The notes under the pieces were generated by a model. The model was given only the letters and a program-made list of their open reading frames with translations. It searched no databases and was not told the DNA's origin. A DNA stretch of 64,000 nucleotides, taken from an uncultured archaeon (GTDB lineage: Archaea; Iainarchaeota; Iainarchaeia; Iainarchaeales; VGJJ01). The DNA is taken from contig CAYZPC010000001.1 of assembly GCA_964480705.1 (NCBI GenBank), positions 31,297-95,296 of the forward strand, written 5' to 3'. How positions within the stretch are numbered: position 1 is the first letter of the stretch; the number at the start of each line of letters is the position of its first letter. Positions 3,208 through 59,432 of this stretch are shown in pieces. The position numbers were made by a program, and so were the translations under genes.

Positions 3208-3252
3208 ATAATTTTGATGCATCGTTCCAACACGGAAAATTGTTAGAAAAAG

Positions 3253-3336
3253 TGCAGGGAGCAGGATTCGAACCTGCGAAGGCACTAAGCCAGTGCGGCC
3301 TAAACGCACTCCGGTTGACCGCTACGGTATCCCTGC
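3253..3336 (-). tRNA. tRNA-Leu (anticodon TAG), class II, no encoded CCA
   Basis: RC: GCAGGGA acceptor, anticodon stem GTGCG-CGCAC with loop TTTAGGC, long variable arm, T-arm GCAGG-TTCGAAT-CCTGC. Confidence 0.8.
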
Positions 3337-18397: not shown

Positions 18398-18469
18398 TGG
18401 ACCCGGGAGGGGTTGAACCTCCGACCTTCGCTGTATAAGAACGCTGCTCTACCACTGAGCTACGGGTCC
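18398..18469 (-). tRNA. tRNA, probable tRNA-Ile (anticodon TAT) with G27.A43 mismatch
   Basis: RC: GGACCCG-TA-GCTC-AGTGGTA-GAGC-A-GCGTT-CTTATAC-AGCGA-AGGTC-GGAGG-TTCAACC-CCTCC-CGGGTCC-A. Confidence 0.6.
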
Positions 18470-40380: not shown

Positions 40381-40830
40381 TCATTCGATGAACTGTTTAA
40401 TGTGTTCAAGAATTATATCCAATTTTTCTTTGGGTAAAATGTCGCTAGTCTTTGGCAAATAGTGCCGACCAAATTCCGTATCCATCCACGTTTTTCCGTC
40501 AAAAGTAATTGGTTCGTCATGTCGCGGTTTCATGTGCCAGTGAACGTGAGGGTTGTATGGTTTTTCTTTGAACGCGTGATTCATGAGGCATGTCCAATTA
40601 AACAGCGTAAATGGAAATGCCTTTTTGAGACCCGTTTCAAGTTTTTCAGTCACGCGGTGAAAGTCAACCATCTCTTCATCCGTAAGTTTAGACAAACTTT
40701 CAACATGACGTTTGGAAGAAATGAGGCATCTTCCCAAATAATTTTGGTCCCAGCTCAGGAAAACGTTCCAGTGTTTCGTTTCAAAAATAGGGTATTCCTT
40801 GATTGGGCAGATGTGGCATTCTTTTTCCAT
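40381..40830 (-). CDS. HIT-family (histidine triad) hydrolase
   Basis: NPHVHWHMKPR HxHxHxx motif. Confidence 0.8.
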   Translation of the reverse strand: MEKECHICPIKEYPIFETKHWNVFLSWDQNYLGRCLISSKRHVESLSKLTDEEMVDFHRVTEKLETGLKKAFPFTLFNWTCLMNHAFKEKPYNPHVHWHMKPRHDEPITFDGKTWMDTEFGRHYLPKTSDILPKEKLDIILEHIKQFIE

Positions 40831-40952
40831 AATTTACTTGTGAAACGTAGAGATAAAATCCTATGTTTTATTTTTTTCGGCGGTTTACCTTCCGCCCGTT
40901 TTTATTCAGTTTATTCGTGTTCGTTTCGCACTCACTTTTGGAGGTCGTTTCT

Positions 40953-41801
40953 ATGGATCAAAAAGATGCGTTGGTTGTTTTTCAAGATACAAAAATTAGG
41001 AGAATATTACATAATAATGAATGGTTTTTTTCAGTCGTAGACGTGGTTGGTGCTTTGACAGATAGTCCAACGCCCCGACAATACTGGGGCAAAGTAAAGG
41101 ATAGGGAGTTCAACGAGATTCAGTTGTCCCCAATTTGGGTACAACTGAAATTACCTTCTTCGGACGGCAAACTATACGAAACCGACTGCGCCAACACCCA
41201 AAACATGTTCCGCATCATCCAATCCATCCCTTCTCCCAAAGCCGAGCCCTTCAAACAATGGTTAGCCAAAGTAGGCTATGAGCGCGTGAAAGAAATTGAA
41301 AACCCTGAATTAGCCCAAGCGCGCATGGTCGAAACCTACCGCGCGAAAGGATATTCCAATGAGTGGATTGAAAGACGTCTGCGTGGCATTGCCGTGCGGG
41401 ACGATTTGACGAATGAGTGGAAAAAACGCGATGTGAAAGAGGGAGTGGAGTTTGCCATCCTCACGGCGGAAATTTCTTCCGCCACATTCGGAATGACTCC
41501 AACCGAATACAAGGATTTCAAGGGGTTGAAAAAAGAAAACTTGCGCGACCACATGAATGATTTGGAGTTAATTTTTACCATGCTCGGAGAAGCATCCACT
41601 GCACACGTTGCGCGTGGAAAAGACGCGCAGGGTTTTGTTGAGAACCAGCAGGCCGCCGTGGTGGGTGGAACGATTGCAGGGAATGCGCGAAAGGAATTGG
41701 AAAATAAAAGTGGAGAAAAGATTTCCACATCTGAAAATTATCTTTCTGTTCCTGAGAGTCAGAAGCGTTTGGAGCGCTCGGCTAAAAAACACATTGAGTG
41801 A
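40953..41801 (+). CDS. Bro-N / DinD-like (DNA-damage-inducible protein D family) protein
   Basis: N-terminus IRRILHNNEWFFSVVDVVGAL fits Bro-N; C-terminal NEWKKRDVKEGVEFAILTAEISSATFGMTPTEYKDFKGL block. Confidence 0.55.
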   Translation: MDQKDALVVFQDTKIRRILHNNEWFFSVVDVVGALTDSPTPRQYWGKVKDREFNEIQLSPIWVQLKLPSSDGKLYETDCANTQNMFRIIQSIPSPKAEPFKQWLAKVGYERVKEIENPELAQARMVETYRAKGYSNEWIERRLRGIAVRDDLTNEWKKRDVKEGVEFAILTAEISSATFGMTPTEYKDFKGLKKENLRDHMNDLELIFTMLGEASTAHVARGKDAQGFVENQQAAVVGGTIAGNARKELENKSGEKISTSENYLSVPESQKRLERSAKKHIE

Positions 41802-47023: not shown

Positions 47024-48199
47024 CTACCCTAAAGTAGTGAGCAAATATGGCACGACTGCAAGTGTCGCGAGCATGCTCCCCAGATTGGCGAGCACGGTGA
47101 TAAGGAGGATTTGTGTCACGCGGTTTTTTCGAAACGATTGAAGGGAGTTCAACTCGCTTAATCCTGTGAAGTCCTTCATATTGGGCGCATCGCGTTTCGC
47201 TTCCATCGCCGCAGCCACCCATCCTGCTGCAATTAAGGGGTGGAGCGCGGCCAGCCACGCCGTGAGAAAAACACCTATGGCAGTACTCCAGTGCGCTCCG
47301 CCTAACATTGCTCCAATGGATGCGAGCACGCCGTGTCCCACAAACCAAAATAATAGGAAATGCAGCGAGGATTCAATTCCGCCTTGTAAAAATAACCATC
47401 CAAACACTGCGACAAATACCACTGGGATTCCCCATTCTATCCATTTGTTTTTTTTCTCGGTGGGAACAATATTCAATTCGGCCAGAGGGATGAGTTTTTC
47501 CGCGTTTCCTTTGGTGTGTGCGTGCAAGTGTTCGATTATTCCTTTCACGTGTCCCGCCCCCACTATTCCAACAATTTTTTTTCCAGGAGTTTGAATGAGC
47601 GCATGCGCAATGTACGAATCGCGTTCATCCACCAGCGTTCGTTTGAGTTTGGGATATTCGCGCGATAAATCTTCCATGAGTTTTGTCACGAGGTCGCTTT
47701 GTTTCATTTCTTCAATTTTTTTTTCATCGAGTTTTTCTTCCACTCCGCCAAATAATCCCATCACGAGGCTTCCGCCAAGTTTTAATTTTTCCCAAATGCT
47801 AACGTTGGCGAGGGCGCGCTTCATGGTGATTTGTAAACTTCTATCCATGAGCAATAGCGGTGTTTTAGTCTGTTGCGCGTACTCCACCGCAACTTTCATT
47901 TCATCCCCGGGTTTTACTCCCACATTTTCTCCTAATCTTTTTTGCATGTTGGAGAGGAACAAATTCAATAGCACTAATCCGCTTTGCCCCGACTCAATGA
48001 GCTTCAACACATTCGTGTTTTCCCACTGGTCACCATTCATGAGTTTTTGCAATCGTATTTCGTCTAATTCTACTCCCACAATAGTGGGTTTTTCTTCTTC
48101 AATCGTTTTTTGTACTAATTCCACACTCGCTCTGGAGATGTGTGCCGTTCCCACGAGGATGATTTCTTTTTCTCCTACTTTAATGCGGAAAATGCTCAT
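47024..48199 (-). CDS. TraB/PrgY/GumN-family protein with C-terminal TM domain
   Basis: VGTAHISRASVELV..VGVELDEIR N-terminal motif; 4 C-terminal TM helices. Confidence 0.7.
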   Translation of the reverse strand: MSIFRIKVGEKEIILVGTAHISRASVELVQKTIEEEKPTIVGVELDEIRLQKLMNGDQWENTNVLKLIESGQSGLVLLNLFLSNMQKRLGENVGVKPGDEMKVAVEYAQQTKTPLLLMDRSLQITMKRALANVSIWEKLKLGGSLVMGLFGGVEEKLDEKKIEEMKQSDLVTKLMEDLSREYPKLKRTLVDERDSYIAHALIQTPGKKIVGIVGAGHVKGIIEHLHAHTKGNAEKLIPLAELNIVPTEKKNKWIEWGIPVVFVAVFGWLFLQGGIESSLHFLLFWFVGHGVLASIGAMLGGAHWSTAIGVFLTAWLAALHPLIAAGWVAAAMEAKRDAPNMKDFTGLSELNSLQSFRKNRVTQILLITVLANLGSMLATLAVVPYLLTTLG

Positions 48200-48404
48200 T
48201 TACATGTGTGAGTCCGTGCTTATTAAAAAAGGGTTGATGGGGAAAATAACATATGACAACTGTATTATCTCAGGAAGTGTTATCCGTTCTCGTCTGTCCC
48301 AAGGATAGAGGGGAATTATCCTATTCTTCCTCAGCAAACACCCTCACGTGCAACACGTGCAAACACGTGTATTCGATTGTGAATGGCGTTCCCAACATGC
48401 TGAA

Positions 48405-48962
48405 CTAATTAGTTGGTTTGCGTCCCGCCCATTTTCTCCACATTTCCTCAGGATTTTCCAGCAAATATTTTCGAATGCGATCCCCAATCATTTTGGGCGT
48501 CATGTCGCGCGCGACAAGAACCATGACTGTTTTTTTTCCACCGTGTGAAATTTCTCCCACGTATCCCATTTGGGGATTGAGAAATTGAATAAGTATTCGT
48601 TTCATTTGTTTTATTTCTGTCCGTTTTCGTGCATCAAGTATTGGTGCGTTTCGCAGGGCATTATATTTTTTCCAAAACGAAAGTACGGGACTTTCTTTTG
48701 TTTGGTCGGCAAAAAATTTTTCGGGGGAAGAATACCATTTCCACGGGAGTAAAAGTTTTTCAGTCATGCGTTTTTGTTCGGCGGGTGTGGCGCGTGAAAA
48801 AAGATTTCCAACTACTCGTTCTCGAACGGCTTTCATTCGCGCAGAAAAGTGTTCTGCATTTTCCCGATGCGTCGCATACGTGGGTGTGGGTTTTTTCGCG
48901 GCGCGGCGTTGTATGCGCACTACTCTTCGCTGTCTGCGCTTAGATGCCGGTTGCCCATTCAT
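48405..48962 (-). CDS. Hypothetical basic protein, third gene of the Lhr-MPE operon
   Basis: 185 aa, R/K-rich N-terminus; 20-nt gap from the MPE stop. Confidence 0.5.
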   Translation of the reverse strand: MNGQPASKRRQRRVVRIQRRAAKKPTPTYATHRENAEHFSARMKAVRERVVGNLFSRATPAEQKRMTEKLLLPWKWYSSPEKFFADQTKESPVLSFWKKYNALRNAPILDARKRTEIKQMKRILIQFLNPQMGYVGEISHGGKKTVMVLVARDMTPKMIGDRIRKYLLENPEEMWRKWAGRKPTN

Positions 48963-48981
48963 GCGTGGAATGGGTTTTTGT

Positions 48982-49809
48982 CTAATTTAAACGTTCCAAC
49001 AACCCAAAATCGTACACGCTGTCTTCCACTAACCACGCGCGAAAATGGTCCAGTTTTCCTTGCAGAAAGGGCGATAGTGCTCCTTCTCGCGGATCGCTTC
49101 CCGGCGCAGCAAAATTGAATGAGGGCAGCACTAAAATGCGCTTGTTTTCATAATTTCCCACGAGAAAGCATTTGTATTTTTGTTTGGTGGCCCCATCTTG
49201 TAATTCAATCGCGGGGTGGTCGTGTCCAATAATCACCGTGTGAGCGTTTTCATACGCTTCATCGTTTGGAATTTCGTGTCCGTGGCACACGTATGCGCGC
49301 GAGTGTTCTAACAGCACGCCTTTTTTCTCTAATTTTACTTTAGCAAATCGTGCAATGGGTTCAATGGCAATGTCATGATTTCCTTTGATAATGGTTATTC
49401 TGTCCGAGTGTTCGCTCAATAATTCAAGTAGTTGAATGACCTCTCTCCATTCTTGGTTGGATGCATTTCCAAACCCATGTTTAATATCTCCATTCAAAAA
49501 AATGTGCGAAACATGTTTTTTTTCGGTAAAGAGCGCGCGCAAATGTTCCTTCACTTCTTTGAAATTGAATCGCGGAAGAAACACTCCTTGGTTGTTGTAG
49601 TGTTCTTCTAATCCTAATTGTAAATCCCCCAAAATGAGGCAATCATCCGCAGGCACGTAGAGTGCTAAATCCATTGCTTGAAAACCTGGGGCAATTTCCA
49701 CGGGAAGAAGTGTAGTGTGCGTGTGGGCAGGCGCCTCACTATGCGTCGCGTGAATTAGTTTTCCCAGGGGGTGTTTTTCTTTTTTCTCAGGCTTCTTGGG
49801 CGGTGACAT
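48982..49809 (-). CDS. mpe: Metallophosphoesterase (calcineurin-like), MPE nuclease partner of Lhr
   Basis: GDLQLG, NGDIKHGFG, GNHD, GHEIP, GHDHP motifs; overlaps the Lhr stop. Confidence 0.75.
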   Translation of the reverse strand: MSPPKKPEKKEKHPLGKLIHATHSEAPAHTHTTLLPVEIAPGFQAMDLALYVPADDCLILGDLQLGLEEHYNNQGVFLPRFNFKEVKEHLRALFTEKKHVSHIFLNGDIKHGFGNASNQEWREVIQLLELLSEHSDRITIIKGNHDIAIEPIARFAKVKLEKKGVLLEHSRAYVCHGHEIPNDEAYENAHTVIIGHDHPAIELQDGATKQKYKCFLVGNYENKRILVLPSFNFAAPGSDPREGALSPFLQGKLDHFRAWLVEDSVYDFGLLERLN

Positions 49810-52381
49810 TCTGCATCACCTTCTCGTGCATGCGCTTGATAAAACTGAGCCTGTCTTCGAGTTTGACCAGGTCATAGTGTCCTTGCGCAATGAGGTTGAA
49901 CGCGAAGGGAGAAAACGTGTCGAGGTGCACAATATTCACCTTAATCATTCCCTGCTCAATGGCGGTGATGATTTCTTTGGCGTGGGGCATGTCCATTAAG
50001 TCTTCTAATACTTCACGGCGTGCCTCGCGTAAAATGGGGAAGTTTTCATCCATTCGCATAACAGCTGAAAGTAAGAGGCGTGAGGACATTTGCTGTCGTC
50101 CAACAGACTTGGTGCGCCCCATGTAGGTGCGCAATATCATAAACGCTCGCGTCGCACAATGTCTGAATCTCCTTCGGAGAACTTCCGAGGTGCGCAATGC
50201 TATTTCTAGAATTTTTTCAAACTCCCATGAGTGTACGAGTGAGATGAGTTTTTCGGGCGAGGCTTTTCCTCCAAATCGGAGGGCAAAGCCATTGTCTCCG
50301 AGTAATATGTCCACATCCTGATGAATCATTCGTCCTAATGCATACGCGTAGGCGCGCGACATCGCATCATTTACTCTCCTTCCAAAGAGGGTGTGAAAAA
50401 CAAAATTGGTCATTCCTTCTTCTTTCACTACTTCTAACAACACGCTTCCGTGGTGGGGAATCTCGGCAAAATGGAATTGCTGGTAAAAATATTCATAGAT
50501 GGCATTCGCTGCGTATTTGTCCACATACAAGTAGGAGTCAATGAAAGTGAGAATTTCTTTTTTGCTTTTTTTGAGTCGGAATTTTTCTTGCATGAGTTTT
50601 CTAAATTTTTGAATTTCCAGCGCCAAATCGTATGATAGTGGGAGCATCTCTGACACCCAGCTTGGAATCGTGGGGATTCCTCCGGATGCTTTAGCTTGTA
50701 CGGTCATTCCGCGTGCGAATTGAAACTCCATTGTGTTTCCACCTAATGCAAATCGGTCTCCTTTTTTGAGGCGGTCCATGAATGCTTCATCAAATGTTCC
50801 AATGACGTGTTCGCCAATCTTCACTTTCACTTTTGCTTCATCGGGAATCGTTCCCAAGTTTGTCATGTATAGCATGCGCGCCATTTTTCCGCGTTTTCCC
50901 ATCATGCCAGTGGCTTCATCTATCCACACTTTCGCGTACACGTGTCTAACTTCCAATCCCGCGTAATGTCCGCTCAAATAATCAATGATCGCATTGAAAT
51001 CCGCTCGCGTGAGGGTCTCATACGGGTATGCGCGCGTGACTTCCTCATACACTTCTTCAATTTTTCGCGGATCATTTACGACCATTCCAATAATGTGCTG
51101 CGCCAACACATCAAGTGCATTTTTGGGTACGTGAACACGGTCAATGTTTTTTTCAATGGCATTTTTCAGCAGCACGCCGCACTCTACTAAATCATCTCGG
51201 TCTAACACGACAATTCGTCCCTTCACCACATCATGCAGTTTGTGTCCCGCGCGTCCAATTCGTTGCAATGCGCGCGCCACTCCCTTTGGGCTGCCTAACA
51301 AAATGACCAAATCGATGTATCCAATGTCAATTCCTAATTCAAGCGACGTAGACGAGACGCACACTTTGTATTTTCCCGTTTTCAAGTTGTCCTCTACTTG
51401 AAGTCGGTGTTCGCGTGACAAACTCGAGTGGTGGGCGCCAATAAATCCTTCATATTTGCTCGGATATTTTTCTTTCAAGTGATGCACCACTCTCTCGGTG
51501 GCCGCCCTCGTATTCGTGAAAATTAATGTTGAGCGGTGGTTTCCAATTAAATCATCTAGCAAGCGGTACACCGCTTCATCCATTTTTTTCTGAGTAGTAT
51601 TAATCAAATCCGGTAATGGAGAGAGTACTTTCATGTCCATTTCCTTGATGTGGGACACATCCACTACTTTGCACGGTCGCGTTTTTCCCTTGTTTTCGTT
51701 TCCAACTAAATAGTTAGCCACTTCATCCAACGGTGCCACGGTCGCGGATAACCCAATGCGTGTAATAGCTGGAGAGAGTCGCTGCAAGCTTTCCATGCTG
51801 AGTGCGAGCATCGTTCCTCGTTTTCCGCTGGCAATCGCGTGAATTTCATCCACAATAATCCAGCGCGCCTCTTTCATTGCGAGAGAAAATTTTGGTGCGG
51901 TGAGCATGATAGCAAGTGTTTCCGGTGTCGTGATGAGGATGTGAGGCGGTTTCTTCAGCATCGCTGCGCGTTCATTTTGAGGCGTGTCTCCGGTTCGCAC
52001 CCCAATGCGAATAGGATATTCTTTTCCCAATTTTGCGGCTGCCTTTTGAACTTCTTCTAAGGGTGCTTTCAAATTTTTTTCAATGTCGTTTGACAATGCT
52101 CGCAGCGGAGAAACATACACCGCGTACACTTTGTCCTCCAGTTGTTGTGCGTCCGAGAGGTGCATTAATTCCGATAACACGGCCGCAAACGCGGAGAGTG
52201 TTTTTCCCGTTCCGGTGGGGGCGGAGATGAGAATGTTGTCGCGGCGGTGAATGGATACAATGGAATAAAGCTGCGGCTCCGTAAATCCCTTGAAGTGGTG
52301 CTTGAAGTACCCCCCCAAGAGCGGGTGCAAGGATGCATACACTTCCGTCTCGGGAAACTTTTGGGTGAGGCGCGTAATCAT
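49787..52381 (-). CDS. lhr: Lhr-like large superfamily-2 DNA helicase (Lhr-Core: RecA1-RecA2-WH-domain 4)
   Basis: APTGTGKT, DEIH, SATV, and 864-aa length with Lhr-like C-terminal domains. Confidence 0.85.
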   Translation of the reverse strand: MITRLTQKFPETEVYASLHPLLGGYFKHHFKGFTEPQLYSIVSIHRRDNILISAPTGTGKTLSAFAAVLSELMHLSDAQQLEDKVYAVYVSPLRALSNDIEKNLKAPLEEVQKAAAKLGKEYPIRIGVRTGDTPQNERAAMLKKPPHILITTPETLAIMLTAPKFSLAMKEARWIIVDEIHAIASGKRGTMLALSMESLQRLSPAITRIGLSATVAPLDEVANYLVGNENKGKTRPCKVVDVSHIKEMDMKVLSPLPDLINTTQKKMDEAVYRLLDDLIGNHRSTLIFTNTRAATERVVHHLKEKYPSKYEGFIGAHHSSLSREHRLQVEDNLKTGKYKVCVSSTSLELGIDIGYIDLVILLGSPKGVARALQRIGRAGHKLHDVVKGRIVVLDRDDLVECGVLLKNAIEKNIDRVHVPKNALDVLAQHIIGMVVNDPRKIEEVYEEVTRAYPYETLTRADFNAIIDYLSGHYAGLEVRHVYAKVWIDEATGMMGKRGKMARMLYMTNLGTIPDEAKVKVKIGEHVIGTFDEAFMDRLKKGDRFALGGNTMEFQFARGMTVQAKASGGIPTIPSWVSEMLPLSYDLALEIQKFRKLMQEKFRLKKSKKEILTFIDSYLYVDKYAANAIYEYFYQQFHFAEIPHHGSVLLEVVKEEGMTNFVFHTLFGRRVNDAMSRAYAYALGRMIHQDVDILLGDNGFALRFGGKASPEKLISLVHSWEFEKILEIALRTSEVLRRRFRHCATRAFMILRTYMGRTKSVGRQQMSSRLLLSAVMRMDENFPILREARREVLEDLMDMPHAKEIITAIEQGMIKVNIVHLDTFSPFAFNLIAQGHYDLVKLEDRLSFIKRMHEKVMQNVTAQEA

Positions 52382-52505
52382 TGTTTTTCACTAAAATGGT
52401 TATCTATCGGTCATGCGATAGGCTAGTATACGAAAACGTGGAAATAGGATTAAAATGCCATGCGGGGTGGAGCGCCAATATATACTCTTTTTTCCTTGGC
52501 TCTTA

Positions 52506-53141
52506 ATGGAAATTCTCTCCTATCGCGAATCGCGTATTTTCTCAAAGCAGGCAACCGACCGTATTTTGCAGTCCATTGCTCGAGCGAATGGTCCGATTGT
52601 TCTTCCGGTGGATATTGAATCAATTGCCCATTGCCGCCGCGCCGCACGAGACCCCGCAGTGGTTGCTTCCATTGCAAAAAACCCGTATGGTTTGGACGTA
52701 ATCTCTCTAGCCATTTATTCGATGGCACAAGGAAAGCAAATCGTTCCCATGTTTAATTCAGCGTGGAAAAAACTAGGCAAGCAACATCATCAAGCCTATG
52801 CCGCTTTCGAATCATTGTCAAGTCGTTCGAATGATTTGGCTCGTGCACGCGTGCAGTACGCCCATCGCGAATATTCAATTGAAGCGGCTCGTCTCAAAAA
52901 TTTTTATGAGCGTTTTAGAAAAATTTCTCCTGCGTTGATTGTGGCGGAAGATAATTATGCGATTATTTTTGGCAAACTATTTCGCACCCGCGTACAGAGA
53001 CTCAGCCGACATTCCCGGAGCGGTTTGATGATCATTCGTAAAGTTTGGCCTCACGTAGTGGAAGCATTTAGGGATAATCCCGTTGCTATTCACTCGCGCA
53101 GGCATGGGAGAAAAATAAGGCGTTTGAGAAAAGGAAAGTGA
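52506..53141 (+). CDS. Hypothetical basic protein
   Basis: ORF only. Confidence 0.4.
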   Translation: MEILSYRESRIFSKQATDRILQSIARANGPIVLPVDIESIAHCRRAARDPAVVASIAKNPYGLDVISLAIYSMAQGKQIVPMFNSAWKKLGKQHHQAYAAFESLSSRSNDLARARVQYAHREYSIEAARLKNFYERFRKISPALIVAEDNYAIIFGKLFRTRVQRLSRHSRSGLMIIRKVWPHVVEAFRDNPVAIHSRRHGRKIRRLRKGK

Positions 53142-56864: not shown

Positions 56865-59432
56865 CTAATCGTCTTTCCAAATTTTTTTCTTAGTTGGAGC
56901 GTTTTCTTTTTTGGCAAAATTAATGGGCTTTTTCTCGCGGAGCTTTTGTTCAAGCTTGCTTCCAATGGGTGCTCCTCCCACAATTTTAGATGCAATTTTT
57001 TGGCTGGCGCTCATTTTTCCGCTTACGAGCATGCTCGATTCTTTTTTCTCAGACTTGGGTGCAGGCTTTGGAAGAGAAGGGAGTTTGAATGCTGGAAGTT
57101 TGAGTAATGGTTTTGACGCGGATGTTTCCACGCGCACGGGTGATTTATTTGAAATAGTTGGAAGTGCCAGTTTAACTTTTCCCGTTTTCACGAGGTAAAA
57201 CAAAACGCCCCCACCCACAATTAGTCCAACAATAATGAATCCGGCTAAAAAGTAGGGGTTGCTTGTGAAAGGGTTTGGTTTTCCACTCGCATTCACATCG
57301 CTGTTCAAGTCCACTGCCGAAGTGGCTTGCATGTAAATCTGCACATTGTTTCCCGGAGCATATGTTACGGCTTCCGATGCAATTCCGCGTTGGGGAATAT
57401 TTGCCAACGCTTGATATTTTCCCGCGTCCGCAATGTCAAACAAACAGTACCCATTCGCGTCCGTGGTGCACGTTCCTACGGTCGCGCACTGGTTTTTGAT
57501 TTGGGGAATGTTGTTGGCTAGTGATGCAAATGACCCTGCGCACACATTTCCATATTCAATGAAAACAATTTCCACGTTTCCTATTCCTGAGTTGTCCACA
57601 TTATTGAGCTGCACTTCAATTCCCGCATCATCTATTTTTCCATTGCAGTCATTGTCTAAATTATCTTCGTTTTCCGTTGCACCCGGGTATATTTTGTCGC
57701 TGTTATCATTGCAGTCTTTTGGTACTGCACACGTGGACACGCCATCGTCGTCTTCATCAAATCCATTGTCTACTTTTCCATTACAATCATTATCCACTGC
57801 GTCGCACACTTCACTTGCTCCAGGGTGAACAGCGGCATCGTTGTCATTGCAGTCAAATTTAACCGTGTCTTTGGCACAAACCCCGTCGATGTATCCATCT
57901 CCATCATTGTCCACACATTCTTCGCATCCCACGGTGATGATTTTCCACGCATCGGCCGCAGCGGATACTGCGAGAATGTTATTGTTAGGGTCAGACGCGA
58001 GCGCGTTGGCAATTTTTCCATCTAATTCGCTGGGGAAAAAGTTATCCGCTTTGTCAAACAATGCATATGCTTGCTGCTGGAGTCTTCGTTCCATTGTTTC
58101 TTCGCTTTCCACGCACGATGCGCGGAGGAAAACGTGTCCAAGCATGAGCTGCGCAAATGCTCTTCCTTCCGTGTCAATGGAGTAGCTCGCATACTTGAGT
58201 AAATCACCATTGCGCGAGAGCCCTGATCCCGCGTCATCTTCCTCTAAAACGAGCAATGATTGCACAGCCTTTTTGAAATTGGTATTTTCAGTGTAAATTT
58301 TTGGATTCGATTTTTGAAGTAAATGAAGAGTCACACTCATGTCGGTAATGAATCCTTTCGTCTCACCCACTGCCACATACGCAGGATAGGCTTCATACGC
58401 TGCACTTCCATCATCCGGGGTGCAATTGTTGGGATTGATCCCTGCTCCTTCCCAGCGCATGTAATCCTTGTATGTGCCATCGCATTCTTGCAGGGCGAGC
58501 ATTCCTTTTTCGGCAATTCGAGCAGCGCGGGAATATTTAGTGTCTCCCGTTTCCTTTGCTAGCGCGTCCCAAAATAGAATCGTTTGCGCCATGTGTGTTT
58601 TTCGGCTTTCGTGGAGTTTGATATTTCCCCCATCCGTGCACAATTCGGTGTCTGCTGAATCCGTTTGAATGATGAATTGATACGGCATCAATCCCACTGG
58701 AATAGTGTGCCCATACGTATCGGCTGTTTTGGAGGAAGGTATTCCAAATGTTTCTCCTTCTTCCACTACAATCGCGTCGAGGAGCATGTTTCCAATTCCC
58801 GTGGCAATTTTCATGTAATCATTTTTTCGCGTAGAGTCAAAATCGGCTGCGCGCAAAAACAAATATCCCGCTCCTGCGAGCGTGGAGAGTTGTGCCTGTG
58901 TTTGTTTGTTGATGGTGTCCTTGGGCACGCCCCACGTGTTGAATGCAATGCTTTCGTCTTTCATGCACGCATTACTCGTTGCGTTTATTCCCAAAATGGA
59001 TGGGAGAACATTTGCAATTCCATTGTTGGGAAGTTTTTCTTTGTGTCCCGTTCCAAATGTTTCCGTGTTGGGAGTCCACACCCAGGGAAGGGTTTGCGTG
59101 GCAACGTGTGTGATTTTGCTGGACAATCCATCATTCAAATCCAATCCCGCGAGCTGCGGGTTGAGGAGTGTGTCCATTCCAATAATATACAAGCCAATTT
59201 TTCCAAATTCGTTTGAGTTGTCAAAAAAATCGACATCATCAATGGAGAATTGCGATTGGGGCAAATCATACACGCTTCCCCATCCCCGCGTGTTGTGGGA
59301 GGTGACAAATCCTCTCTCCACCATGTTTTCGAGCGTATCATCCAGCCCATCAGGCGGCGTTTCAGCCAGTGCAAAGGTAAGCGGAGATAGCCCAGCGAGA
59401 AGCAGAATTGACAATAGCACTCGCTTCCACAT
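56865..59432 (-). CDS. Large surface protein with MopE-like putative metal-binding repeats and C-terminal TM plus Lys-rich tail
   Basis: Signal peptide; CVDNDGDGYIDGVC..DCNDNDAAVHP..DNDCNGKVDNGFDEDDDG repeats; TM FLAGFIIVGLIVGGGVLFYLV. Confidence 0.7.
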   Translation of the reverse strand: MWKRVLLSILLLAGLSPLTFALAETPPDGLDDTLENMVERGFVTSHNTRGWGSVYDLPQSQFSIDDVDFFDNSNEFGKIGLYIIGMDTLLNPQLAGLDLNDGLSSKITHVATQTLPWVWTPNTETFGTGHKEKLPNNGIANVLPSILGINATSNACMKDESIAFNTWGVPKDTINKQTQAQLSTLAGAGYLFLRAADFDSTRKNDYMKIATGIGNMLLDAIVVEEGETFGIPSSKTADTYGHTIPVGLMPYQFIIQTDSADTELCTDGGNIKLHESRKTHMAQTILFWDALAKETGDTKYSRAARIAEKGMLALQECDGTYKDYMRWEGAGINPNNCTPDDGSAAYEAYPAYVAVGETKGFITDMSVTLHLLQKSNPKIYTENTNFKKAVQSLLVLEEDDAGSGLSRNGDLLKYASYSIDTEGRAFAQLMLGHVFLRASCVESEETMERRLQQQAYALFDKADNFFPSELDGKIANALASDPNNNILAVSAAADAWKIITVGCEECVDNDGDGYIDGVCAKDTVKFDCNDNDAAVHPGASEVCDAVDNDCNGKVDNGFDEDDDGVSTCAVPKDCNDNSDKIYPGATENEDNLDNDCNGKIDDAGIEVQLNNVDNSGIGNVEIVFIEYGNVCAGSFASLANNIPQIKNQCATVGTCTTDANGYCLFDIADAGKYQALANIPQRGIASEAVTYAPGNNVQIYMQATSAVDLNSDVNASGKPNPFTSNPYFLAGFIIVGLIVGGGVLFYLVKTGKVKLALPTISNKSPVRVETSASKPLLKLPAFKLPSLPKPAPKSEKKESSMLVSGKMSASQKIASKIVGGAPIGSKLEQKLREKKPINFAKKENAPTKKKIWKDD

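Follow-up and report, generated by a model that had tools for sequence, protein, structure and literature searches.

A hypervariable orphan gene at a fixed position behind the lhr-mpe cassette of Candidatus Iainarchaeum

The lhr-mpe-FAM locus

Little is understood of what the widespread Lhr-MPE repair cassette does in the cell, and a conserved third partner would have aided its functional study. Here we analyze a 64,000-nt stretch of DNA, referred to below as the window, in which the genes for an Lhr-Core helicase (lhr) and an MPE-type metallophosphoesterase (mpe) are followed on the same strand by a third gene, for which we use the working name FAM. The corresponding loci of relatives are identified by codes (L001, L005, L016, L096 and so on). 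The nearest named relatives of both MPE and Lhr come from Candidatus Iainarchaeum / Diapherotrites metagenome-assembled genomes (MAGs) and, by this sequence affinity, the window derives from a DPANN archaeon of the Candidatus Iainarchaeum clade. The features at the center of this study are:

49787 to 52381, minus strand: lhr, Lhr-Core superfamily 2 (SF2) helicase, 864 aa, without C-terminal extension
48982 to 49809, minus strand: mpe, archaeal MPE-type binuclear metallophosphoesterase, 275 aa
48963 to 48991, minus strand: 19-nt spacer (48963-48981) plus the TATA-like box TTTAAATTA at 48983-48991
48405 to 48962, minus strand: FAM, basic orphan protein, 185 aa, isoelectric point (pI) 11.0

An earlier note on this DNA had described three co-directional open reading frames (ORFs) encoding Lhr-Core, MPE and an uncharacterized basic protein, and the coordinates of all three matched ours. 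The overlap of 23 nt that it gave for lhr and mpe was likewise borne out (49787-49809); the start of mpe, that of the longest ATG-started ORF, falls within the 3′ end of lhr, and the same start codons were picked by independent gene callers in near-identical contigs. The third gene does follow mpe after a short gap, although this measures 19 nt (48963-48981) and not the 20 nt previously stated. The peptide quoted in the note, GEISHGGKKTVMVLVARDMTPK, is found in the FAM ORF, and its description of a basic product with an R/K-rich N-terminus holds, with 10 K+R among the first 30 residues, 42 K+R versus 16 D+E overall, and no family match.

FAM is an orphan gene with the signature of a coding sequence

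FAM is an orphan without known family or fold: its product had no match in Pfam, NCBIfam, PHROGs or PADLOC. Among 5.8 billion protein clusters, a word-indexed search returned four with 64-100% identity; five further credible clusters, at ~25-46% identity, came to light when 1.84 billion representatives were searched exhaustively with a profile. No relatives were found in two Joint Genome Institute (JGI) metagenome scans, one with a subfamily alignment and one with the family member P0128, or in a scan of viral contigs. A 696-aa repeat protein (P0130, E=3e-4) was rejected as a relative, as only short W-K-W-Y-like repeats align.

The ORF is intact in nine diverged alleles, in which its length ranges from 167 to 235 aa. 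Close alleles have a ratio of non-synonymous to synonymous divergence (dN/dS) of 0.14-0.18, and a more distant pair one of 0.34, compared with 0.05-0.10 for mpe and traB, the next conserved gene downstream. These values indicate that the ORF is translated and constrained, more loosely than its neighbors, and on the pattern of substitution FAM is a real protein-coding gene under purifying but relaxed selection. Thirteen alleles can be aligned and share an architecture consisting of an Arg-rich N-terminus, an N-P-x-x-F motif, a W-x-W strand, an F-x-N-P motif, a beta-hairpin and the T-P...L-x-x-F-L helices; the only invariant or near-invariant columns of the family alignment A2 are W74, V150, T155 and L167. 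The version found in L011 and L021 is shortened to 136-144 aa and lacks the W-x-W core.

FAM has a fixed position in the genomes that carry it and is missing from most of their relatives

In all nine alleles with readable context (the window, L001, L005, L096, L016, L019, L014/L018, L023 and L013), FAM is the next gene 3′ of mpe, shares its strand and is separated from it by 19-38 nt. Two further genes delimit this arrangement on its downstream side:

48253 to 48408, plus strand: trm112-like gene, 51 aa, convergent; Pfam Trm112p E=2e-10; its 3′ end overlaps the 3′ end of FAM by 4 nt
47024 to 48199, minus strand: traB-family gene, TIGR00261 314 bits; conserved downstream border of the variable slot, separate from the lhr-mpe-FAM unit

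The trm112-like gene is on the opposite strand in 13 of the 17 clade loci, and since it converges on FAM and overlaps its 3′ end, the co-directional lhr-mpe-FAM unit closes at FAM. The traB gene follows the slot in every clade locus of sufficient length. All FAM carriers with readable context belong to one Candidatus Iainarchaeum clade, in which a 20-kb neighborhood is wholly collinear, in the order MopE-like, enolase, Zn-ribbon, MarR, orphan, lhr, mpe, slot, traB, tRNA-binding protein and CDP-OH transferase. As the whole block is collinear, synteny alone is uninformative here, and one insertion in a common ancestor accounts for the position that FAM has in all of these genomes.

The distribution of FAM was assessed in a survey of 80 mpe loci from species-representative genomes. 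A hidden Markov model (HMM) of the family matched only in loci of the Iainarchaeum clade (MPE at least 61% identical), each time directly after mpe, and no FAM was found at the ~63 non-Iainarchaeum DPANN mpe loci, including the 24 at which lhr is no more than 10 kb away. Within the clade, 14 species-representative genomes could be compared; FAM is present in four or five of them and missing from nine, all of which keep intact lhr-mpe. The slot next to mpe is occupied in these genomes as follows:

L016, L018, L019, L023: FAM present
L021: shortened, doubtful version of FAM
L017, L020, L041: nothing before trm112/traB
L022, L026, L027: RNase T-like gene, opposite strand
L024, L025, L084: unrelated basic ORF family (cluster 10), opposite strand

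These data show that FAM is dispensable for lhr-mpe and has been lost or replaced in most of the related species. Because lhr-mpe persists under strong constraint without FAM, and because none was found outside the clade, FAM is not a conserved Lhr-MPE accessory. The earlier note had proposed the third gene as a candidate accessory of the Lhr/MPE module, to be judged by the conservation of its neighborhood; its adjacency to mpe stands in the nine alleles with context, but the gene neither co-occurs with lhr-mpe across independent lineages nor is retained within its own clade, being absent from nine of the 14 clade genomes and from the ~63 other loci. The synteny on which that proposal had been staked thus fails outside the clade and holds only in part inside it.

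The other occupants of the slot are described here for completeness. The cluster-10 ORFs (L024 5126-5572, L025 10736-11194 and L084 10724-11194) encode proteins of 148-156 aa with a pI of about 11 and no Pfam match; they were considered as inverted relatives of FAM and rejected (hhalign probability 0.4%). Eight relatives carry, on the opposite strand in the mpe-traB slot, a gene for an RNase T-like DEDDh exonuclease (Pfam RNase_T, E=1e-9), located at 4172-4786 in L011, at 7331-7945 in L013, and in the same slot in L022, L023, L024, L026, L027 and L084; tblastn found none in the window. This gene recalls the bacterial linkage of full-length lhr with rnt, which encodes RNase T, but unlike in that arrangement it is on the opposite strand, lies beyond FAM, is absent from the window and is unrelated to FAM. 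Repeats at the flanks, of the kind expected around a cassette or a mobile element, were looked for, and nothing beyond short matches at chance level was found.

FAM alleles have a history of their own

FAM is far less conserved than the genes on either side of it. The protein identities to the window are:

L001: Lhr 100%, MPE 97%, FAM 78%, TraB 98%
L096: Lhr 93%, MPE 78%, FAM 46%, TraB 79%
L016: Lhr 96%, MPE 90%, FAM 27%, TraB 84%

At the nucleotide level, FAM alone is unalignable between the window and L016: blastn gave 83% identity over lhr-mpe and 76% over traB, with similarity ending at 48975 and resuming at 48417. In 200-nt windows compared with L001, identity fell to 77-80% at 48504-48903, whereas it was 95-100% across the rest of an aligned block of ~17 kb. 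The drop forms a distinct feature:

47700 to 49300, no strand assigned: divergence peak against L001, centered on FAM, with shoulders of 86-92% identity

The shoulders of this peak reach the 3′ portion of mpe on one side and the 5′ portion of traB on the other. Synonymous divergence (dS) between the window and L001 was 0.80 for FAM versus 0.08-0.26 for its flanks, while between the window and L005 it was 0.49 for FAM versus 0.71-0.96 for the flanks. Furthermore, the identity matrices of MPE and FAM group the relatives differently, and there are at least five deep FAM allele classes, with a mutual identity of 18-32%, in genomes whose MPE proteins are 64-90% identical. Faster amino-acid change alone cannot raise dS or reorder relationships, which indicates that the alleles recombined or were kept as old polymorphism. 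The incongruence between the allele history of FAM and that of its flanking genes, as read from these sequence comparisons, points to recombination.

On a wider scale, nucleotide identity to L001 alternates between 100% blocks and ~95% blocks across 38400-59000, a mosaic that suggests frequent homologous recombination within the Iainarchaeum population.

Predicted structure and expression of FAM

The structure of the third protein, which the earlier note had suggested predicting, was modeled with AlphaFold2; a model was obtained, but no significant fold match came with it. A first model reached a predicted local distance difference test (pLDDT) score of 64, and adding diverged alleles improved it, so that the model built from six diverse sequences had a pLDDT of 72.7 and a predicted template modeling (pTM) score of 0.59. 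It comprises an Arg-rich N-terminal helix (residues 8-22), further helices, a three-stranded sheet and two C-terminal helices; the sheet combines the conserved strand WKWY (74-77) with a hairpin (134-149). Foldseek found nothing significant against the Protein Data Bank (PDB), where the pLDDT-64 model was used, or against BFVD.

Two candidate folds were considered and set aside. The sole lead to a ribbon-helix-helix (RHH) protein was SSV ORF E73 (PDB sequence profile, E=0.16, residues 135-180); in the model the hairpin is joined to a third strand and does not form an RHH strand, and no RHH protein was among the fold matches. FAM also does not show the HExxH motif on a zincin fold that would mark a zincin or Wss1-SprT-like metalloprotease. 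In FAM no His, Cys, Asp or Glu residue is conserved and no known catalytic fold was recognized, from which we infer that it is non-enzymatic. Its most likely ligand would be nucleic acid, given the excess of K+R (42) over D+E (16) and the Arg-rich N-terminus.

The 19-nt spacer between mpe and FAM contains no Shine-Dalgarno-like sequence. The TATA-like box TTTAAATTA is located at positions -29 to -21 relative to the ATG of FAM, where it overlaps the stop codon of mpe, and A/T-rich boxes are similarly spaced upstream of other FAM alleles, even where their sequence differs. In archaea, this is the position of the TATA box of leaderless mRNAs. We infer that the box is a putative FAM promoter; FAM could be transcribed together with lhr-mpe, from its own promoter, or by both routes.

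The Lhr and MPE enzymes and their known linkage

The identities of both enzymes proposed in the earlier note were confirmed above family cut-offs. Lhr scored 1155 bits on NCBIfam PRK13767 (cut-off 849) and contains the Pfam domains DEAD (35-217), Helicase_C (273-379), WH_Lhr (410-568) and DEAD_assoc (641-827), that is, the architecture RecA1-RecA2-WH-domain 4 in 864 aa without the C-terminal domain of bacterial Lhr. Its SF2 motifs (Walker A, DExH, SAT and motif VI) read GTGKT57, DEIH178, SAT212 and QRIGR373, its closest solved structure is that of M. smegmatis Lhr (5v9x, E=1e-116), and its dN/dS is 0.02-0.03. MPE scored 157.6 bits on TIGR00024 (cut-off 115.2). The ligase-associated families were rejected for both proteins, as MPE scored 80 against a cut-off of 150 on PdeM TIGR04123 and Lhr 562 against 850 on TIGR04121 (DEXH_lig_assoc), and there is no ligase or Exo gene in the lhr-mpe neighborhood. 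A side observation concerns L014 (5153-9157, on the same contig as L018), where Lhr measures 1334 aa and contains an intein (Pfam Intein_splicing and LAGLIDADG_3) inside the helicase; the window Lhr has none.

Four of the five MPE motifs are canonical (GDIKH107, GNHD143, HGH176 and GHDH195). Motif I, in contrast, is GDLQLG (residues 61-66; window 49612-49629, minus strand) and reads D62-L-Q64, which, judged by motif, would place Gln64 at the position equivalent to His35, an Mn1 ligand of the Pseudomonas putida MPE. In that enzyme, the binuclear metal site has seven ligands in all, namely Asp33, His35, Asp78, Asn112 and three His (PMC7826289). The Gln of motif I is invariant across the Iainarchaeum clade, whereas D-x-H is kept in more distant DPANN homologs. 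The mpe gene is under strong purifying selection (dN/dS 0.06-0.10), and judging from its motifs the MPE of this clade may have a variant metal site that is functional. That it apparently lacks a canonical metal-ligand histidine and is yet strongly constrained is of interest as a side observation.

According to the earlier note, conserved linkage in archaea would be new. For lhr-mpe this is not the case, since the linkage is already published, DPANN included: a passage of PMC7826289, citing Ejaz & Shuman 2018, states the archaeal two-gene Lhr-Core/MPE cluster, PMC7437997 likewise describes archaeal lhr-core as clustered with MPE, and PMC8301817 places a TIGR00024/COG1407 gene beside alhr2 in DPANN, Thermoproteales and scattered Euryarchaeota. 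In our survey, lhr directly precedes mpe in the Iainarchaeum clade, and lhr is within 10 kb at 24 of the other DPANN mpe loci, directly adjacent at 6 of these 24. The window resembles the published two-gene cluster (Ejaz & Shuman 2018; aLhr2 with TIGR00024/COG1407, Hajj et al. 2021) in its protein families, in the order lhr then mpe, and in having co-directional genes with overlapping or abutting reading frames. It differs in that, in the MPE of its clade, a Gln apparently replaces the first His among the metal ligands and in that some Iainarchaeum genomes carry a third, clade-specific gene after mpe. The bacterial four-gene Exo-Lig-Lhr-Core-MPE cluster (Pseudomonas putida; TIGR04123, TIGR04121) is a precedent for the pair recruiting extra genes. 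Those extras are an exonuclease and an ATP-dependent ligase conserved across phyla, whereas FAM is an orphan, presumably non-enzymatic and limited to one genus-level clade.

Other genes of the window

A second variable gene lies on the other side of lhr:

52455 to 53141, plus strand: divergent basic orphan ORF, 228 aa, pI 10.8, outside the lhr-mpe-FAM unit; no credible family match

This orphan, located upstream of lhr in divergent orientation, has an Arg-rich C-terminal tail and is 100% identical in L001, 81% in L005 and 33% in L096; other relatives have different ORFs or none at this site. A pI of at least 10.8 is found in 8% of window ORFs. The presence of a second fast-evolving basic orphan beyond lhr indicates that such genes are a trait of the gene gaps of this lineage and, as these locus comparisons have it, lhr-mpe is bordered by variable orphan slots on both sides.

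Several features elsewhere in the window were also recorded. Between the genes for an aminoacyl-tRNA synthetase and an adenine glycosylase lie a HIT-domain ORF (40381-40830, minus strand) and a Bro-N ORF (40863-41801, plus strand); the stretch 40381-41801 is missing from L001, which is otherwise 95-100% identical, and the Bro-N ORF suggests a small insertion of mobile-element origin. A tRNA-Ile with anticodon TAT (UAU) is encoded at 18398-18469 (minus strand) and confirmed by Rfam (65.7 bits); most archaea decode AUA with a modified CAU anticodon. A tRNA-Leu(TAG) was called by ARAGORN at 3252-3336 (minus strand), where the Rfam tRNA model was silent at its gathering threshold, and the remaining three tRNAs of the window are supported by both ARAGORN and Rfam. 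The ORF at 56865-59432 (minus strand) encodes 855 aa with an N-terminal signal-like segment, Cys-rich Cu-binding_MopE-type repeats (Pfam E=7e-17) and a C-terminal membrane anchor-like segment; its position is conserved in relatives, and its product is probably a surface protein.

Discussion

FAM is a clade-specific, dispensable and hypervariable orphan that occupies a variable slot after lhr-mpe, and we consider it likely that its product works by binding and not as a catalyst. According to this explanation, the locus consists of an ordinary archaeal two-gene Lhr-Core/MPE cassette of Iainarchaeum followed by a clade-restricted orphan before the trm112-like and traB genes. FAM would act by binding, its Arg-rich N-terminal helix contacting nucleic acid and its compact alpha/beta body forming the conserved core. 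Transcription of FAM would either continue from lhr-mpe or begin under control of the TATA-like box where mpe ends, in the latter case giving a leaderless mRNA. If FAM has any functional connection with Lhr-MPE, it would be a modulation particular to this clade, with no part for FAM as a core subunit. In its small size, its lack of homologs beyond a narrow clade, its patchy presence and its rapid divergence, FAM resembles the lineage-specific ORFans of DPANN archaea; it differs from a typical one in its fixed position and orientation behind mpe and in the exchange of its allele classes.

Some observations weigh against this explanation. FAM keeps strict adjacency to mpe in nine alleles despite turnover further downstream in the slot; insertions, the RNase T-like gene among them, are located without exception on the side of FAM away from mpe, and none separates the two genes. 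Such adjacency would be expected if FAM were tied to lhr-mpe in function or transcription; the nine alleles do not include three distant members of the family (P0126, P0128 and P0129). The TATA-like box partly overlaps the stop codon region of mpe and could be a coincidence, and nucleic-acid binding by FAM is proposed only from its composition and a medium-confidence model (pLDDT 72.7).

Restricted to the clade, the proposal of the earlier note would make FAM a genuine Iainarchaeum-specific accessory of Lhr-MPE, a small co-transcribed DNA- or RNA-binding factor that would recruit both enzymes to their substrates or modulate them there. Its invariable place immediately 3′ of mpe, on the same strand and within 19-38 nt in nine alleles whose identity drops to 18%, fits such a role, as do the purifying selection on the gene, its basic, Arg-rich N-terminus, the closure of the lhr-mpe-FAM unit by a convergent gene and the extra Exo and Lig genes known from bacterial Lhr-Core/MPE clusters. 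We nevertheless regard it as unlikely, because nine of 14 species-level relatives with intact, constrained lhr-mpe do without FAM, as does every other DPANN locus surveyed, and because FAM evolves about ten times faster than its supposed partners and is exchanged independently of them. Since all carriers are collinear, a single ancestral insertion suffices to explain the adjacency, and FAM may have a promoter of its own. A further idea is that FAM is a hypervariable targeting or specificity subunit through which the Lhr-MPE of Iainarchaeum would be coupled to certain nucleic acids, foreign or damaged. It seems to us very improbable, and nothing here supports it directly.

The deep allele classes, the presence/absence polymorphism, the recombinational exchange and the sharp divergence peak with its hitch-hiking shoulders could alternatively reflect a conflict-driven gene, that is, a specificity, immunity, anti-mobile-element or host-interaction factor of an episymbiotic lineage, with allele classes kept by diversifying or frequency-dependent selection and with the neighboring helicase and nuclease serving as its effector or not. 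Cluster-10 ORFs and the RNase T-like gene show that the slot takes cargo of other kinds too. On the other hand, there was no match to PADLOC or PHROGs, no viral fold match and no relative on viral contigs; pairwise dN/dS is well below 1, fast evolution is common in small, highly charged proteins in the absence of conflict, and the orphan across lhr behaves alike, so that we give this explanation little credence. That FAM is non-functional, either an ORF that exists by chance or a remnant undergoing decay between genes, is barely credible: no known domain is recognized in it, many relatives lack it and it is shortened without its W-x-W core in L011 and L021, but nine alleles of similar length (167-235 aa) remain intact despite synonymous saturation, with a dN/dS of 0.14-0.34, their architecture is conserved, and the AlphaFold2 model improves when diverged alleles are added. 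Neighborhood comparison and divergence data therefore leave us with FAM as a clade-specific, dispensable orphan, most probably one that acts by binding.

Were FAM a targeting subunit after all, the repair cassette would be a defense-like module, with an arms race preserving the allele classes of FAM and recombination moving them from lineage to lineage. The finding that FAM is confined to one clade and dispensable spares effort on a supposed pan-archaeal accessory, and the locus is mildly interesting in its own right as an orphan with a fixed address behind a conserved operon, its sequence replaced allele by allele.

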